Virus record (IMG/VR): IMGVR_UViG_3300032312_001770
Coordinates: 64,001 to 128,000 of that record
DNA length: 64,000 nucleotides
Reading direction: 5' to 3' (one strand)
Origin: a virus
Taxonomy: Duplodnaviria; Heunggongvirae; Uroviricota; Caudoviricetes
Position numbers and translations under genes: made by a program. Below are positions 14,261 through 38,189 of this stretch, piece by piece. A model generated the notes under the pieces. That model ran no database searches. It was not told where the DNA came from and worked only from the letters and a program-made list of their open reading frames with translations. The number at the start of each line of letters is the position of its first letter. Position 1 is the stretch's first letter.

Positions 14261-15224
14261 AATTATTATCGTCTCCATCAAAGTATAAAATTTCATCTTC
14301 ATCTGGCTCACGCTCTTCGCGTTCCATAGCACCAGAACTTTGAACTAAAATATAATCAAAGTTATATGAGTTAGAGTTAGAGAATCTACCCTTATCAAAA
14401 TTGAAGAACTTGAAAGTATCTAAGTAAGGATAATAAGATAAATTATGTTCATCTAAAATAACATATAATTGTTTTCTAACAGGAGAACCAGTACCATCAT
14501 CAAACAACATTTCTGTTTTAGCACTTTGTTCCCATTTACAAAGATAACCATTTTCTTTAGCCCAGTCCTTAAAGAAGTTAATATCATGATCATAGTAATA
14601 ATATATTCTATCCATAAACTTATATTCTTTAGTAGAATCTTTATGGTCTTTAACACCTTCCCACAATAAGGCTCTAGCTCTTACTTTATCATCATCTGAA
14701 AAGAAAACTAACATTTTTACTTTACTAGAATTCTTAGCATATAAAGTCATAAACCTGTTTCTTTCTCTTTGTCTCATACAAGAATTCCAAAGAGATCCGG
14801 CTCTATTTCCATTAAGACTGTGATAATTATCTTCTAAATAATACTTTAGAATTTCTTCTCCTTCAACAATCTTTAATTTAGATATATCTCTAGAAAAATA
14901 AGATTTATAAAGATTTACAAATTTTTCAATAAGTGCATCAGTAACCTTAAAATTCTTAAATGAAAACTCTGTTAAAAACTTTCTGACAAATCTTCCAATT
15001 TTAATCTTAACACGACCATTTTCCCAGTTATCTTCAACTTTTTCATATTTAGACTTTGGTAGAAAAGAAACAACATCAATTTCATCAGATGATCTTTTGA
15101 TGTAGTTTCCTTCATCATTTATATGTGATGAATCACCTTGTAAGAATAAGGCGGCTATAATAGATTCTCTTTGAGCAAATTGCAAAAAGTGATACATTTC
15201 ATCGTTAAAAATAAGTAATGACAT
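14259..15224 (-). CDS. Conserved-looking phage protein of unknown function
   Basis: 321 aa with motifs KIGRFVRK, NSCMR, RARALLW and FMDRIY. Confidence 0.6.
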   Translation of the reverse strand: MSLLIFNDEMYHFLQFAQRESIIAALFLQGDSSHINDEGNYIKRSSDEIDVVSFLPKSKYEKVEDNWENGRVKIKIGRFVRKFLTEFSFKNFKVTDALIEKFVNLYKSYFSRDISKLKIVEGEEILKYYLEDNYHSLNGNRAGSLWNSCMRQRERNRFMTLYAKNSSKVKMLVFFSDDDKVRARALLWEGVKDHKDSTKEYKFMDRIYYYYDHDINFFKDWAKENGYLCKWEQSAKTEMLFDDGTGSPVRKQLYVILDEHNLSYYPYLDTFKFFNFDKGRFSNSNSYNFDYILVQSSGAMEREEREPDEDEILYFDGDDNN

Positions 15225-19731: not shown

Positions 19732-19926
19732 TTACTCTGTAACTAGAATCAAATTATCTTTAATTACAAATCGAAAGTCGCCTTCTTCTAAAATCATAAT
19801 AACATCTTTATGATTATTACTAATTATAGAAATTGGCAATGAATTCTGATTGTTATAAACAAATCTACGAACTTTTTCTTTTAATTCTGAGATACTTATA
19901 GTATCTAATAAATTAAGTTCTTTCAT
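19732..19926 (-). CDS. Hypothetical protein
   Basis: 64-aa ORF continuing the minus-strand run. Confidence 0.5.
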   Translation of the reverse strand: MKELNLLDTISISELKEKVRRFVYNNQNSLPISIISNNHKDVIMILEEGDFRFVIKDNLILVTE

Positions 19927-19931
19927 ATTAA

Positions 19932-20498
19932 TTATGGCTTTAAATAATCTTTGACTTTCATTAACATATAATCTGTAATTAAATCAGATGGATTTAGAGA
20001 GTTTAGATATCTAATATCTATTTTTACAGACTTACTCATTTCTTCTTCTTTAGATCCGTCACCTTTAGCAACAACTTCTTCATAATCTCTTTCATTCAAA
20101 GGAATTAAAAATGGATAATATTTATTAGAATTAGCTTTACTAATATAAAGAGGTTTCATATCTTCAAATTGAAAATCGTCTCTAATAACAATACCAGCTT
20201 CTTCTTCAAGTTCTCTTCTTAAAGCTTTCTCAACACTTTCACCTTGTTCAATACCACCACATACTAAAGTAACGTGATATTCTTGACCATCAACATATTT
20301 GAATGTAGGAATATATTCATATCTTAAAACAATTTGATTTGTCTCAATTAAAAAAGGAATACAAACAACACAATCTTTTTCTTTAAGAATAGACCAATCC
20401 TCAAACTGAACTACTTGAAAGTGTTTATCTTGATAAAGAACTTTGTCTTTATCATCATCAAATTCTGCCTTTGGTTTTAGCTTTGAAAATTTCTCCAC
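19932..20498 (-). CDS. NUDIX hydrolase
   Basis: Nudix box GGIEQGESVEKALRRELEEEAG. Confidence 0.9.
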   Translation of the reverse strand: MEKFSKLKPKAEFDDDKDKVLYQDKHFQVVQFEDWSILKEKDCVVCIPFLIETNQIVLRYEYIPTFKYVDGQEYHVTLVCGGIEQGESVEKALRRELEEEAGIVIRDDFQFEDMKPLYISKANSNKYYPFLIPLNERDYEEVVAKGDGSKEEEMSKSVKIDIRYLNSLNPSDLITDYMLMKVKDYLKP

Positions 20499-20529
20499 AA
20501 TTTAATATCTATTTTCTTATATATTAAAT

Positions 20530-21165
20530 TTAATATCTGTAATTCTTGGTCGCTTTGCGGCATTTCAACTGACTCTTTATATTATTATTTTCTGAAGTAC
20601 CTAACTCTAACCGAGCATTCTTACGTTTCATAACTAAACCTTCAATCATATCAATAGGAGTTAATTTATCAAAGATATTTTTAAAATCATCTTTATAAGA
20701 CTTAACTCGATAAACATTCTCAGTTACTTTGAAAAGATATTCTTTTTCAGAATCTACTTGACCATAAATAGTATTAAGCAATTGAATTCTTTCTTCAAAT
20801 GTTTTACCTACAAGATATTCGCTATTAAATCCAAGAATATCAAAAATAACAAATTTATGATTAAAAACTTGATTGTTTTCGTCTGACTTAGACTTATTCA
20901 TATATTCACCATTCAAAATCATCCAGCCTTCGCCGCGATAAATATCTTTTATTTCATTATCAGAAATGTTAAAGTTAGTAAGTCTTTGATTGTGACGGTT
21001 CATAACAATAGTCTTAACACCATTTGTAAAGATAACACAATTTGAACCATTAAGTTTTGGCTGAGCAATCAAAGATCCATTATCCCAAAACTCTAATTCC
21101 GTATCAGGAATAGCGTTTTTGGGTCTTGGGGGAAAAATATAACGATAATTGAGGTACTTTGCCAT
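20530..21165 (-). CDS. ATP-dependent ligase or capping-family covalent nucleotidyltransferase (adenylation domain only; RNA ligase-like)
   Basis: Motif I QPKLNG, III ILNGE, IIIa FVIFDI, IV IEGLVMK, V LKCRK; no OB domain. Start at ATG 21165. Confidence 0.8.
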   Translation of the reverse strand: MAKYLNYRYIFPPRPKNAIPDTELEFWDNGSLIAQPKLNGSNCVIFTNGVKTIVMNRHNQRLTNFNISDNEIKDIYRGEGWMILNGEYMNKSKSDENNQVFNHKFVIFDILGFNSEYLVGKTFEERIQLLNTIYGQVDSEKEYLFKVTENVYRVKSYKDDFKNIFDKLTPIDMIEGLVMKRKNARLELGTSENNNIKSQLKCRKATKNYRY

Positions 21166-21184
21166 AAAACAAAGATAAGAAAAA

Positions 21185-21778
21185 CTAAGCGAACTGCCAA
21201 GACATTTGACCAAAAATTTGAGTCAAGTCCTCATTATGTTTACGAGAAGTTGAAATGTTTACTTTTGAGTTAAGAGCCATATTCAACTTGTAATCCATAA
21301 CTTCTAAAGGATTATGAACTTTAAGTTTTTTTCCATTGAAGTCAATTGTAATAAAAGAAGCACTTTCATTATGGAAAAAATCAACTTTATACTCTTTCTC
21401 TGAGGTAAATATTCCTCTCTTGTGTTTAAACTCAACATAGCCTAATCGGTTAGGAGTTGAAAATTCCTCATCGTCATAGCCATCTTTGATATATTTAGGA
21501 TAACGATTTTTATCATCAATAAGAATATCAATATCATTTGTATCTCTGTATATTAGACCAAAAATATTTAGTGCTAATGAACCACTAATGATATCATTGG
21601 GTAATTTATCTGAAATAAAATAAAGTAGGTCTTTATGTTTATCTAAAGCTTTTTCGGAAGCAGTGAAGTTAGCCTCACCACTAATAACTTTTAATTTGTA
21701 ATCTCTGAATTCTGTTTGTAGTTCAGATGGAGTTAAAAAGTTTGTATGTACCGAACCTAAACGATATGAGTTTGCCAT
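21185..21778 (-). CDS. Pol-beta-superfamily nucleotidyltransferase
   Basis: SGSLAL...RDTNDIDILI (GS + DxD motif), with a later VDFF strand. Confidence 0.75.
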   Translation of the reverse strand: MANSYRLGSVHTNFLTPSELQTEFRDYKLKVISGEANFTASEKALDKHKDLLYFISDKLPNDIISGSLALNIFGLIYRDTNDIDILIDDKNRYPKYIKDGYDDEEFSTPNRLGYVEFKHKRGIFTSEKEYKVDFFHNESASFITIDFNGKKLKVHNPLEVMDYKLNMALNSKVNISTSRKHNEDLTQIFGQMSWQFA

Positions 21779-21793
21779 TAATGTAAAAATTAG

Positions 21794-21864
21794 AGGTCGG
21801 GGATAGTAACAAGCTATCGTAACATCACTTGCGGTAATGTACCTATGATCTCGGTCACCCGACC
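21794..21864 (-). ncRNA. tRNA-like cloverleaf RNA (Cys-like GCA loop, U discriminator, non-canonical T- and D-loops)
   Basis: GGTCGGG-TG-ACC(GAGATCATA)GGT-A-CATTA(CCGCAAG)TGATG-TTAC-GATAG(CTTGTTA)CTATC-CCCGACC-T-CTA. Confidence 0.6.
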
Positions 21865-21870
21865 TTATTA

Positions 21871-22011
21871 TTAAGAATTAAACTCAGCGTTGAGTTCATC
21901 CATTAAAAGTTGATTTTGATAGTCTTGAGCCATCTGAAGAAAATCGCATACACAATTAACATCTAAATTCTGATTGTCAAGAACGTCTGAAACTACTGAT
22001 GTGATATCCAT
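21871..22011 (-). CDS. 46-aa acidic peptide (not in ORF track)
   Basis: MDITSVVSDVLDNQNLDVNCVCDFLQMAQDYQNQLLMDELNAEFNS*, directly downstream of TATCTTTG. Confidence 0.6.
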   Translation of the reverse strand: MDITSVVSDVLDNQNLDVNCVCDFLQMAQDYQNQLLMDELNAEFNS

Positions 22012-22043
22012 ATCTTTTTTATTTTGTTATACAAAGATAAGGA

Positions 22044-22418
22044 TTATTTTTTAATATTCAAAATATCTCCTAAAGTTATAGGAGAATGTTCCATTGATTC
22101 TATCTCTAGAATGTGATTAATTCTTTTCTGTCTAAGCATTTCTTTAGAATAAATAGAAGTCATATCTATTAATTTACCAGGAGAATGAGTATGTTGTGTT
22201 ACTCTCATACCTCTTTTACTTATATGTGTTACTGTTTTAGGTTGAAGTTCGTCTGGTAAATATTCATAATCAACAGGCACACATGAATAACAATAACAAT
22301 AACCATCATGATCATACCAATCATCATCATACCAATAACTCCAATAGTAATCATCACTAAGTTCAGCCTTAGTAATTATTCTATCAAGTATTTCTATTTT
22401 ACTTTTTCTCAGTGCCAT
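22044..22418 (-). CDS. Hypothetical protein with an aromatic/acidic, Cys-containing segment
   Basis: YYWSYWYDDDWYDHDGYCYCYSC; RQKRINHIL motif. Confidence 0.55.
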   Translation of the reverse strand: MALRKSKIEILDRIITKAELSDDYYWSYWYDDDWYDHDGYCYCYSCVPVDYEYLPDELQPKTVTHISKRGMRVTQHTHSPGKLIDMTSIYSKEMLRQKRINHILEIESMEHSPITLGDILNIKK

Positions 22419-25999: not shown

Positions 26000-26869
26000 C
26001 TATAAACTTACTTTTAATCCTTCAATGTTCCAGATAGCAATATTACCATCCATCTTAAAGTATAAATCTCTTATATCAACTGGTTCGTTCAAAACATATT
26101 TCTTTAGATATAAGAAAAATAGATTACCATTACATCCTACCATTTCTTTGTATAACTCAGTACCAGTCTCAGACAAATATGTATTAATTCGGAAGTCTTC
26201 TATTCTTTTTACTGTAAAAAGTTTAGTTTTAAATAAACTTCTATCAACAGTATTTAGTATTTCTTCAATTTGATTAAAACTTTCAAAAGCATAAATAACC
26301 TCATCATTTTTAACACAAGCAATATCTAAATTAAGATGTTTGTATTTATTTAATAATTCTTCAATAATAACTCGTTGAGCTTTACCTTGTCTTTTTGGAT
26401 TGATATTGCCAAAGATAAACTGTCTTAATTGTTTTGAGTGATTGAAAATCTCAGGAACATCAAACTTAGCAATAAAGTCTTCATAAGAACCGCCAAGTTC
26501 AGGTGCAAACTCAGGATCGTAATTTTTAAGAACTACCCAATTGGCTTTTTTAATATCAATTGAGATATATTTCTTATCTTCTGAATATTCAAAGTTTTTG
26601 GTTGTTGGTAGATCGGGTAATAGATTATCATCTTGAAGTTCATTGTAAGCTCTTGTGAGCTTCAAATAATCAATAATCTCATTTGACTTTTTTAATCTAT
26701 ACTCATAAAGTTCACCATACTTTTCTTCGGCTCCTTCATAAAGTTTAATTAAGTCTTTAATGTTTTTCCACCTTTCTAATTTTGAAAATTGATTAATATA
26801 ATAATCAAAATGTGCGTAATCCGGTACACTGATATCCATCAATCTACAAAAACCTTTTACGTCTTTCAT
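26000..26869 (-). CDS. Minimal polymerase-like palm protein (PolA-superfamily-like)
   Basis: ISIDIKKAN (motif A-like), SKQLRQFIFG (B-like), VKNDEVIY (C-like, compare VHDE). Confidence 0.45.
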   Translation of the reverse strand: MKDVKGFCRLMDISVPDYAHFDYYINQFSKLERWKNIKDLIKLYEGAEEKYGELYEYRLKKSNEIIDYLKLTRAYNELQDDNLLPDLPTTKNFEYSEDKKYISIDIKKANWVVLKNYDPEFAPELGGSYEDFIAKFDVPEIFNHSKQLRQFIFGNINPKRQGKAQRVIIEELLNKYKHLNLDIACVKNDEVIYAFESFNQIEEILNTVDRSLFKTKLFTVKRIEDFRINTYLSETGTELYKEMVGCNGNLFFLYLKKYVLNEPVDIRDLYFKMDGNIAIWNIEGLKVSL

Positions 26870-33412: not shown

Positions 33413-33865
33413 TTAGCCTAAAATTAATTGTAAAAATTTATCTCTCTTTTCCATTTTAGAAAGAGATTTAATACATTCTGGTCCCAATCCATTCTCAATA
33501 GAAGAAGGAACTGTAAGAGGTCTTCCACATTTACCACATCTTCCTTCGTGCCAAGCCTCAATAAAATCTGGTAAAGTTCCTAATATAAGTTTGACCAAAA
33601 CATACTCAAATACTTTAACACTTTGAGCGTCAGCAGATATATCAGATTTTCTACCATGTCTAAACTTACCTTCAATACAAGTTCCAATATAAGAATAAGA
33701 GTCTGGTCTGGTTAAAACACTAACAAAAAACATATTAGAATCTTTGGCTTGTTTTACTTTGAAGGTAAAACGGTTGCCTGTTTTTGAATTAAGTAAAGTA
33801 ACTATTGATTTACCAGCAAAGATAAATTTAAGTGCTTCTGAATTGTCTAATTTATGTCCGTCCAT
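33413..33865 (-). CDS. DUF6011-like zinc-finger protein
   Basis: CGKCGRPLTVPSSIENGLGPEC. Confidence 0.7.
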   Translation of the reverse strand: MDGHKLDNSEALKFIFAGKSIVTLLNSKTGNRFTFKVKQAKDSNMFFVSVLTRPDSYSYIGTCIEGKFRHGRKSDISADAQSVKVFEYVLVKLILGTLPDFIEAWHEGRCGKCGRPLTVPSSIENGLGPECIKSLSKMEKRDKFLQLILG

Positions 33866-36653: not shown

Positions 36654-38189
36654 TTATTTTCTTCTTGTATGAAAGTTATGACCTTCATTAATTCTTTCTA
36701 ATTCTTTAAGATAAATTTCTTTACCTTCTTTCATATACTGAGCTAACATTTCAACTCTTTTGAAATCTTTTTTATCTAAAGCATCATCAATTAAATCTTG
36801 CAATTCTCTTTGAGTTAATTCAGAGTAATTCAATTCAGATTGGTGTTGAAAAACTTCTGGCTCAGCTTTACCTGGCATCATAGTATCTTTCTCTTCTTCA
36901 TAACCACCATTATCAAAGTCATAACTAGGCTCTTCAACATCTATAACTTGACCTAATTCATATTGATTTAATTCTTTATTAACCTCATCAATCATTTCAT
37001 CAATTTTTCTACGAGCATCTGGAGTTTTATTTAATATACCTCTAAATAGTTGTAAGAAATCCGCATCTGAAATATAATCTGAATTCATCATTTTACCAAA
37101 GATAAAAGCTCTCATATTTGGATGTTTAGCTTCTGGATTTTGATTAATAAAATCTCTAAAATCAGCCGCAATTTCTGGACCTGTTCTGAAATCTTCAGCT
37201 TCATCTTCAAATGAACTAACATTTAATTTAACAGTTTGTGCCATTTTAATTTCTTCTTCAGAAGATCCTTCAGCTGGAAATTGAATTGAAGCAATTAACT
37301 CATAAATACCTTTAACAGTTTCATGAATCAACATAGGAAAATCAATACCACGAGCTCTGATTCTTGGAGTAGCCCCTTGGACTTCTTCACCAAACTTTTC
37401 TTTATCTTCTTCATCTGGTTCATCACCAGCAGCTAAGTCTTTAAGAATTCTATCAGCAAAATCTTCATCACTTTCTTCTTCTTTTTCTTCAGCTTCTTCT
37501 TTTTGTTTTGGTTTCCAATCAACAGAGACAGCACCAGCCATTCCTTGTGGAGCTCTTTCCATCATATCAGCTTTAATCTCAATAGGAATAATCCAATCCA
37601 TTTTATCAGCCAAATTACTCATCTCTTTCCACATATTTAGAATTTGATCAGCCTGTGGACCAAAAATGTCAATTAGACCATCTTTAACCTCTTGCATAGC
37701 AATAATATTTTTAGTGTTTTTAGCTTCACCTTGAATAATATTATTACCTAATTTAGCTTTGTGTATTTTATTAATCGTAGCAGGATCTTGAATTTGTCTA
37801 AACTTTGGAGCTTCTTCATTATCATCATCTTGTTCTTCTTCGCAGTCTTTCATAAATTTAGCAATTTGAGAACCAGATCTTAATAATTTAATATCAAGTT
37901 CAACATCATCAAGAATCTCACCATAATTTTGTGTAATAATTTCCTTAGCTAAATTTTCTAAATCTTCTTCACGACCACGAGTCATTTGTTGAGATTGTTC
38001 AACTAATTGCATTAATCTACCACCAAATTGCATTGGAGTTTCACGACCAGATAAACCTAAACGAGCCTTAGCTCTTGCTTCAGTATCTTTAAGATAGTCT
38101 TTATCACCAGGTTGTTTATCACCTTCGTTTGGAACACCAGGGTTGCCTTTTATAGTTACTTCTTCTAAGAATTTTTTAAAATCTTTCAT
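36654..38189 (-). CDS. Putative internal head protein
   Basis: MKDFKKFLEE start; 511 aa, helical and acidic. Confidence 0.55.
   Translation of the reverse strand: MKDFKKFLEEVTIKGNPGVPNEGDKQPGDKDYLKDTEARAKARLGLSGRETPMQFGGRLMQLVEQSQQMTRGREEDLENLAKEIITQNYGEILDDVELDIKLLRSGSQIAKFMKDCEEEQDDDNEEAPKFRQIQDPATINKIHKAKLGNNIIQGEAKNTKNIIAMQEVKDGLIDIFGPQADQILNMWKEMSNLADKMDWIIPIEIKADMMERAPQGMAGAVSVDWKPKQKEEAEEKEEESDEDFADRILKDLAAGDEPDEEDKEKFGEEVQGATPRIRARGIDFPMLIHETVKGIYELIASIQFPAEGSSEEEIKMAQTVKLNVSSFEDEAEDFRTGPEIAADFRDFINQNPEAKHPNMRAFIFGKMMNSDYISDADFLQLFRGILNKTPDARRKIDEMIDEVNKELNQYELGQVIDVEEPSYDFDNGGYEEEKDTMMPGKAEPEVFQHQSELNYSELTQRELQDLIDDALDKKDFKRVEMLAQYMKEGKEIYLKELERINEGHNFHTRRK

Follow-up and report, generated by a model that had tools for sequence, protein, structure and literature searches.

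This study concerns a variant gene for a cysteine transfer RNA (tRNA), tRNA-Cys(GCA), in a 64,000-nucleotide stretch of phage DNA that represents bases 64001-128000 of the 134.6-kb IMG/VR virus record IMGVR_UViG_3300032312_001770. The record is about 30% complete and has a GC content of 29%; the whole 64-kb stretch is referred to here as the window. At the locus, a promoter-like element precedes an open reading frame (ORF) of 46 aa, named pep46, which is followed by a cloverleaf-shaped RNA and then by genes for a nucleotidyltransferase (NTase), an ATP-dependent ligase and a NUDIX hydrolase, all on the minus strand (Table 1). An earlier note on this DNA, made from its letters, had pointed to a tRNA-Cys-shaped RNA in such a setting, and the flanking genes that it named, for a 46-aa product, a Pol-beta-type NTase, a ligase-like enzyme and a NUDIX protein, are all present. 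As judged from sequence comparisons, the cloverleaf is a real and selected tRNA-Cys(GCA) gene, a diverged orthologue of accepted tRNA-Cys genes, because it is matched by a covariance model built from its relatives, its stems covary and its orthologues are recognised by standard programs.

The cloverleaf and its homologues

The RNA, read on the minus strand from 21864 to 21794, begins with a 7-bp acceptor stem (GGTCGGG/CCCGACC) and a UG linker. A D arm follows, in which a 3-bp stem surrounds the D-loop GAGAUCAUA that has no G18G19, and one spacer base leads to an anticodon arm of 5 bp whose loop, CCGCAAG, has GCA at its centre and carries C32-C33 and G38. A 4-nt variable region (UUAC) and a T arm of 5 bp with the loop CUUGUUA, in place of a canonical T54-Psi55-C56, complete the molecule. 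The discriminator U is followed by C-U-A-A, so that CCA is not encoded, and the ATG of the NTase gene lies 15 nt past the discriminator. RNAfold predicts the cloverleaf as the most stable structure (-23.7 kcal/mol, z = -2.3) and also pairs C32 with G38 in it, which leaves an anticodon loop of 5 nt. The geometry reads exactly as the earlier note had described it, including the abnormal T-loop and position 33. The window copy keeps the cloverleaf dimensions, the 3-bp D stem, a purine-purine 13-22, the 4-nt variable loop, GCA, A37 and U73, but it departs from canonical tRNA conservation at U33, G18G19 and T54-Psi55-C56. U73 and GCA, both of which are in the sequence as had been claimed, constitute the identity set of cysteinyl-tRNA synthetase (CysRS).

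Such a molecule was expected to escape standard tRNA finders, and it does. ARAGORN in its standard mode makes no tRNA call anywhere in the window, its relaxed (-ps) mode is silent at the cloverleaf, and the Rfam tRNA model has no match at the window copy at E<=10. The mitochondrial mode of ARAGORN labels the site Cys(gca), but this mode is too permissive: across the 134.6-kb genome it makes about 40 calls that are spurious, and it counts for nothing alone. Because of these other dubious calls, geometry by itself is not convincing.

Further evidence comes from relatives, which were retrieved through their ligase and NTase proteins. A Cys(gca) cloverleaf occupies in these relatives the slot between the 46-aa ORF and the NTase or ligase gene, and the number of huge-phage contigs with such syntenic copies exceeds 15. 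When a covariance model was trained on 15 relatives and not on the window, its sole match on both strands of the 64 kb was this site (81.1 bits, E ~3e-21). The earlier note had proposed covariation among homologues as a check, and covariation is what the alignments reveal. Among 11 orthologues all 220 of the 220 stem cells of the alignment are paired and 11 of the 20 pairs have changed on both sides, and in another set, of 15 sequences and not including the window, 99.7% of the stem cells are paired and 12 of the 20 pairs are double-changed. None of 500 shuffles matches the observed pairing and double changes in either set, and for the 11 orthologues none of the slid registers approaches the true one. 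The standard mode of ARAGORN accepts six orthologues (L001, L004, L006, L007, L011 and L015) as tRNA-Cys, and the Rfam tRNA model gives 52-57 bits to four of them (L004, L006, L007 and L011) against a cut-off of 29 bits. The window RNA is thus an orthologue of genes that both programs take for tRNA. The allele type of the window itself recurs in the independent metagenome contigs L162 and L170, with the D-loop GAGAUCAUA, the T-loop CUUGUUA or CUUGCUA and the anticodon loop CCGCAAG, and with a compensatory swap between G-C and A-U in the T stem. A chance cloverleaf or a decaying relic was also considered and is ruled out by the leave-one-out covariance model together with the covariation.

The 3' tail, which ends in CUA after the discriminator, had been regarded as a defect, a view that does not hold. 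In the relative G001, a genome of 476 kb that is 97% complete, ARAGORN finds 53 tRNAs for all 20 amino acids, and nearly all of these genes end in N73-C-(A/T)AA and do not encode CCA. G001, LR745206 and LR756502 each possess a CCA-adding enzyme of class II (104-108 bits to PF01743). The CUA tail is therefore ordinary for this phage group and no defect. A search of the phage relatives for CysRS found none, so the host enzyme would have to do the charging.

The closest GenBank relatives are 'uncultured phage' genomes (LR745206, LR756502 and LR756504; 634-642 kb) of the Mahaphage clade. The largest members (>634 kb) of this clade are predicted to infect Bacteroidetes (PMC7162821). Most likely, a clade of Mahaphage-type Bacteroidota phages with huge genomes (about 0.4-0.64 Mb) maintains the tRNA lineage. 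An alternative genetic code was set aside, since table 11 ORFs of at least 100 aa already cover about 99%.

Two tRNA-Cys paralogues and the remodelling of one

All six large relatives examined (G001, G002, G007, G008, LR745206 and LR756502) have a second GCA cloverleaf, placed between the tRNA-Ile and tRNA-Thr genes of the main tRNA array. U33, a D-loop with GG and T-loops of the UUCGAAU or UUCAAUC type characterise these array copies. The window element belongs to another, 'ligase-linked' lineage, apart from the tRNA arrays, and it is probably a spare copy, because the large relatives possess this other tRNA-Cys, whose T-loop is canonical and whose position 33 is U. The array copies of G001, G008, LR745206 and LR756502 carry a GNRA-capped hairpin of 12-13 nt in the D-loop after GG (Table 1), because of which ARAGORN misses them, while G002 and G007 have a normal-sized tRNA-Cys at the same array position. 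Two further ideas were discarded. The orthologue is not the only tRNA-Cys of G001, where the covariance model found the array copy, and C33 alleles do not correlate with the presence of an array copy, which all six large relatives have whichever allele they carry.

A pattern scan of IMG/VR and JGI metagenomes, followed by a covariance model, yielded 84 distinct parsable sequences of the family. The retrieval pattern, CGAG...TAGGY...YGCAA...ACGRT, fixed GCA, A37 and a pyrimidine at position 33, where invariance is thus partly built in, and it left U73, the stems, positions 32 and 38 and the T-loop free. U73 is invariant (84/84). The distant family members have a canonical look and are part of ordinary tRNA arrays. 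C33 is found in 29 of the 84 sequences, and a pairable 32:38 (Watson-Crick or G-U) occurs in 27 of these 29 as compared with 8 of the 55 U33 sequences (Fisher p ~1e-12, not corrected for phylogeny); the 27 comprise C-G in 13, U-A in 10, A-U in 2 and U-G in 2. The elbow shows a similar pattern, in that GG in the D-loop is always accompanied by C56, and where GG is lost position 56 is A, U, G or C. A re-coded 19:56 pair, from G-C to U-A, A-U or C-G, fits 63/84 sequences, which is a lead only, as it fails the window allele group in one D-loop register.

Pairwise divergence within the ligase-linked clade is 0.15 for the acceptor stem and 0.16 for the T stem but three to four times as high for the anticodon stem (0.57) and the T-loop (0.44). 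Pairing is nevertheless always preserved, and among close relatives some carry U33 and others C33. It has been recognized that U33 is nearly invariant in elongator tRNAs, with eukaryotic initiators and a Candida tRNA-Ser as exceptions, and that the decoding conformation normally excludes a Watson-Crick 32:38 pair (PMC5041475).

The alleles do not follow their flanks. At two loci (L092:2415-2488 and L094:2416-2489) the NTase is 91-92% identical to that of the window, yet the anticodon stem, D-loop and T-loop differ from those at 21791-21864 of the window, and alleles matching that of the window are found instead in phages whose flanks are more distant (L009, L170 and L162). The RNA is mosaic relative to its flanks because near-identical NTase loci carry a different tRNA allele, a pattern that suggests exchange of tRNA alleles by recombination.

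In other phage contigs a distance of 3-60 nt separates a C33 tRNA-Cys, with the loop CCGCAAG, from a tRNA whose anticodon is CUA, an amber suppressor (Table 1), and arrays of the type in L054 also contain a second tRNA-Cys with U33. This proximity hints at a link to TAG-recoded phages. Another unusual group of tRNAs, for Lys, Glu and Ile and also for Asn, Thr, Met and Gln, is 84-88 nt long and has a class-II-like extra arm with a stem of 4-5 bp and a GAAA-type loop; examples are found in G001 and in the phage's own genome outside the window, and they directly adjoin isoacceptors of normal length. Class-II arms in bacteria are normally confined to Leu, Ser and Tyr.

Neighbouring genes and transcription signals

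Counterparts of pep46 occupy the syntenic position in L004-L011, L015, L058 and L071/L080 (tblastn, 38-83% identity), and pep46 adjoins the tRNA in most relatives; it has no match in Pfam or PHROG. The promoter-like TTTG-N19-TAtcTTTG element before it is near-invariant across 7 aligned relatives and fits the Bacteroides promoter consensus TTTG/TAnnTTTG. The box TTATCTTTG occurs six times in the window, all on the minus strand, which is the coding strand of the region (6 versus 2.6 expected; 5 of 100 shuffles reach 6), and the copy before pep46 has TTTG 19 nt upstream. A terminator-like hairpin further upstream, a pattern match, would delimit a pep46-tRNA-NTase unit.

All 18 homologues compared share the catalytic motifs of the NTase, G66-S67, D82-x-D84 and D133, without change. 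In Pfam it approaches just DUF6036, below the cut-off (17.1 versus 23.6 bits), without a match to PF08843, and AbiE-labelled models of PADLOC match it weakly (E 0.011-0.013). Searches of the Protein Data Bank (PDB) with the NTase profile and the ligase sequence gave no matches, and a protein-atlas look-up returned generic minimal-NTase neighbours. The AlphaFold2 (AF2) model of the NTase has a predicted local distance difference test score (pLDDT) of 84.5. When this model was compared by VIA-align, the Z scores were 9.0 for MenT3/TglT, 8.8 for TM1012, 8.1 for ANT(2''), 8.0 for MenT1 and 7.7 for JHP933, which are tied within about 1 Z, and about 5 for CCA-adding enzymes. The MenT3 alignment, the top structural match, covers 143-146 residues with a root-mean-square deviation of 3.5. 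The suggestion that the NTase is MenT/AbiEii-like is therefore borne out as a weak likeness of fold, with TM1012 and ANT(2'') scoring about as high. The protein is a minimal NTase of the MenT/AbiEii/TM1012/ANT(2'') neighbourhood, a fold from which the substrate cannot be inferred. It shares with the MenT/AbiEii toxins (MenT3, that is Rv1045/TglT, and MenT1) the small Pol-beta NTase form, the GS...DxD motif and a third acidic residue. It differs from them in its low identity (about 11%), the missing PF08843 match, its location on a phage and the want of a recognised antitoxin partner, and LnuA, TM1012 and ANT(2'') score almost alike. Profile scans recognised no AbiEi/MenA-like antitoxin gene in the gene run.

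The ligase motifs are invariant in 13 sequences: I KLNGSN (K37), III LNGEYM, IIIa FVIFDIL, IV EGLVMKR and V LKCRK. Its motif I is one that we take to be Rnl2-like. The protein ends after motif V without an oligonucleotide-binding (OB) domain, falls just short of PF09414 RNA_ligase (26.7 bits, cut-off 27) and gave an unusable structure prediction (pLDDT 36). The 188-aa NUDIX protein has the Nudix box (GX5EX7REUXEEXGU) as GGIEQGESVEKALRRELEEEAG and is nearest to pyrophosphatases of ADP-ribose and ADP compounds (NudF, NudE), with the ADP-ribose pyrophosphatase 1g0s as a PDB match (E 4e-4); NCBIfam NudE/YffH matches are below cut-off. No end-healing kinase or phosphatase was found in the gene run. 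A second NUDIX hydrolase gene lies upstream of the tRNA (Table 1).

Table 1. Features of the tRNA-Cys locus and related tRNA genes. Plain positions are those of the window; others are preceded by the contig or genome.
Feature	Position	Strand	Description
Variant tRNA-Cys(GCA) gene	21794..21864	-	71 nt up to discriminator U73; indicated by sequence, fold, covariance model, covariation and orthologues
pep46, acidic 46-aa ORF	21871..22011	-	Stop 6 nt upstream of tRNA
Promoter-like element	22032..22062	-	TTTG (22062-22059), 19-nt spacer, TAtcTTTG (22039-22032); about 20 nt before pep46 ATG
TTATCTTTG, Bacteroidota -7-like box	14539-14547, 21170-21178, 22032-22040, 26410-26418, 33817-33825, 37097-37105	-
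Terminator-like hairpin	22066..22085	-	End of upstream 124-aa ORF; consensus scan, pattern match only
NTase, 197 aa, minimal Pol-beta superfamily	21185..21778	-	Motifs SGSLAL...NDIDILI, VDFF, KHNEDL
ATP-dependent ligase, 211 aa, nucleotidyltransferase domain only	20530..21165	-	PF01068 38.9 bits (cut-off 26.2)
NUDIX hydrolase, 188 aa	19932..20498	-	PF00293 36.8 bits (cut-off 21.1)
64-aa ORF	19732..19926	-	Last of co-oriented run; conserved in L004, L094-L096
Second NUDIX hydrolase, 160 aa	22872-23354	-	PF00293 54 bits; four genes upstream of tRNA
Hairpin-bearing array tRNA-Cys	L034:17262-17348 (G001); L121:1501-1586 (LR756502); L122:1501-1586 (LR745206); L126:1501-1586 (G008)
C33 tRNA-Cys beside CUA tRNA	L054:1346-1498; L076:2342-2492; L091:7266-7416; L057:41-249
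Extra-arm tRNAs	G000:C1:3568-3837; G001:219872-219959, 231626-231712, 255781-255866		G000 is the phage's own genome, outside the window

From pep46 through the tRNA, (NTase) and ligase to NUDIX, gene order is maintained over ligase identities of 62-93%, with exceptions in both directions. L002, L015, L071/L080 and L074 possess the tRNA and lack the NTase, and in L012, L013 and L014 the enzymes stand without a tRNA. In L005 both NTase and ligase are present and the tRNA slot is occupied by an HNH-like ORF on the opposite strand. This ORF of 314 aa (L005:2447-3391, minus strand) has an HNH-like motif and probably encodes a homing endonuclease; pep46 and the NTase gene are both retained at their positions. 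As far as gene order can tell, NTase, ligase and NUDIX protein appear to be conserved neighbours and not obligatory partners, and their link to the tRNA looks like shared ancestry, not like a toxin-antitoxin or repair unit. An obligate pair of toxin and RNA antitoxin, or of enzyme and substrate, as the earlier note had envisaged for the NTase, is unlikely because each occurs without the other. The single cloverleaf without repeats and a neighbour that is an NTase and not a ToxN-like nuclease also differ from a type III toxin-antitoxin system.

Discussion

The interpretation that we favour, with moderate confidence, is that the window element is a deviant spare tRNA-Cys(GCA) of a paralogue lineage with a remodelled anticodon arm and elbow, which likely keeps cysteine decoding going under attack by host tRNA nucleases. 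The tRNA would share a transcript, made from the host-type promoter, with pep46 and the NTase gene, and would be excised by RNase P and a 3' nuclease. CCA would be added after transcription, as the relatives carry their own CCA-adding enzyme, and host CysRS would charge the product through U73, G34-C35-A36 and the tRNA-Cys-type core. Remodelling of this spare copy would comprise C33 with a pairable 32:38, the replaced positions 18/19 and 55/56 and an anticodon stem that changes fast and is always paired, and its purpose would be sustained cysteine decoding while host nucleases attack the standard tRNA-Cys.

Precedents for such a role exist among phages. Phage tRNAs with changes in the anticodon loop that blunt anticodon nucleases have been described (van den Berg et al. 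2023, PMC10264068), and the tRNAs of T5 overcome the retron and PARIS tRNA nucleases (PMC11555353, PMC11464382). Like these nuclease-escaping tRNAs, the window copy keeps its anticodon and identity, alters the loop next to the anticodon and belongs to a phage group with a large tRNA set. It differs from them in altering the near-universal U33, in its pairable 32:38 and in a rebuilt elbow of D-loop and T-loop; moreover, its lineage lies outside the arrays, where a second tRNA-Cys with canonical loops is kept. In comparison with canonical tRNA-Cys (RF00005), the dimensions and the identity set are the same and orthologues pass the Rfam threshold, whereas the window copy has no U33, G18G19 or T54-Psi55-C56 and receives no Rfam or ARAGORN call.

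Several points weigh against the idea of a nuclease-resistant spare. We know of no host nuclease that targets tRNA-Cys in these uncultured hosts. The hypervariability could stem from relaxed constraint on a redundant copy or from recombination of alleles, not from an arms race, and the association of C33 with 32:38 pairing has not been corrected for phylogeny. The C32-C33...G38 loop of the window may decode poorly or not at all, because U33 is near-invariant and a Watson-Crick 32:38 pair is foreign to a normal decoding loop. G38 also abolishes the A36-A37-A38 context that is usually required for N6-isopentenyladenosine at position 37 (i6A37). Finally, the window record is about 30% complete and the part with its own tRNA array is missing from it, so an array copy cannot be checked in this very phage.

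If the loop does not decode, the lineage could instead be a dedicated non-decoding tRNA-Cys paralogue that is recognised by CysRS and has a C-G-C-A-A pentaloop and a re-coded 18:55/19:56 elbow, with a role off the ribosome as an aminoacyl carrier, a decoy or a substrate of the neighbouring MenT-like NTase, minimal ligase and NUDIX protein. We consider this alternative possible, though doubtful.

A plain redundant tRNA-Cys, still working and drifting under relaxed constraint, with non-adaptive variation at C33, elbow and stem and with irrelevant neighbours, seems somewhat less plausible to us and on the whole unlikely. The more canonical second copy in the six large relatives, the alternation of U33 and C33 among close relatives and the common divergence of phage tRNAs are all consistent with it. 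Drift, however, should break stems, and we find 99.7-100% of stem cells paired and a U73 that never changes. The changes also look coordinated and not random, in that C33 is tied to a pairable 32:38 (27/29 versus 8/55) and loss of the D-loop GG to loss of C56.

Still less likely, in our judgement, is a tRNA that acts off the ribosome, where it would be charged or bound by CysRS and serve as a cysteine donor or as a substrate of the NTase, ligase or NUDIX protein in 3'-end tailing or end repair. What recommends this proposal is that the features read by CysRS (U73, GCA) are kept and those read by the ribosome or at the elbow (U33, G18G19, C56) are lost, while a canonical copy is available for decoding. 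The conserved tRNA-(NTase)-ligase-NUDIX order (ligase identities 62-93%) and the fold of the NTase, nearest to MenT3 (Z 9.0), a tRNA 3'-end NTase, point in the same direction. There is also a precedent in the non-proteinogenic tRNA-Gly of staphylococci, which have UU or CU for G18G19 (PMC4574755). These tRNAs of Staphylococcus, which serve the peptidoglycan bridge, are likewise paralogues without G18G19 and U55/C56 that keep their synthetase identity (PMC4574755, PMC7826273). In contrast to the window tRNA, they keep U33 and are consumed by Fem transferases, whereas the window tRNA is for cysteine and no consumer enzyme has been identified. Furthermore, the tRNA occurs without the NTase (L002, L015, L071/L080, L074) and NTase or ligase without the tRNA (L005, L012-L014), Z scores of 8-9 are also reached by TM1012, ANT(2'') and LnuA, which are not tRNA enzymes, the gene run has no end-healing kinase or phosphatase, and U33 alleles with the same altered elbow exist.

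A decoy, that is, a tRNA-Cys mimic that soaks up a host tRNA-targeting nuclease or modifier and is dispensable for translation, appears very unlikely. The retained anticodon and overall shape with an altered U33 and elbow, and the predicted early, host-type promoter driving the gene, would suit such a function, and phage tRNAs do neutralise tRNA-directed defences (PMC11464382, PMC11555353). A decoy should nevertheless keep the surface that the nuclease recognises, and it is the anticodon stem, positions 32, 33 and 38 and the T-loop that vary most. A single gene copy would also make a weak sponge, and a nuclease for tRNA-Cys in these hosts is not known to us. We consider it highly improbable that the element is an RNA antitoxin to an NTase toxin of the MenT/AbiEii kind, or that it is a cloverleaf arisen by chance or in decay: the NTase gene begins 15 nt downstream, PADLOC gives weak AbiE-labelled matches (E 0.01) to a protein of MenT-like fold and the mitochondrial mode of ARAGORN yields many chance cloverleaves, but tRNA and NTase are separable both ways, type III-like RNA repeats and a PF08843 match are absent, and the leave-one-out model and the covariation exclude chance and decay.

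Whichever function applies, standard finders under-count the tRNA genes of huge phages, as this copy and the hairpin-bearing array copy illustrate, and published inventories are affected. Phage tRNAs are now viewed as weapons against tRNA-directed immunity of the host. The lineage offers a natural allele series in which U33, 32:38 and the elbow of D-loop and T-loop have been rebuilt while the synthetase identity is kept. It makes it possible to ask whether the conserved NTase, ligase and NUDIX run acts on the tRNA, which features a working or a deliberately non-working tRNA can lose, and whether such changes buy resistance to nucleases.

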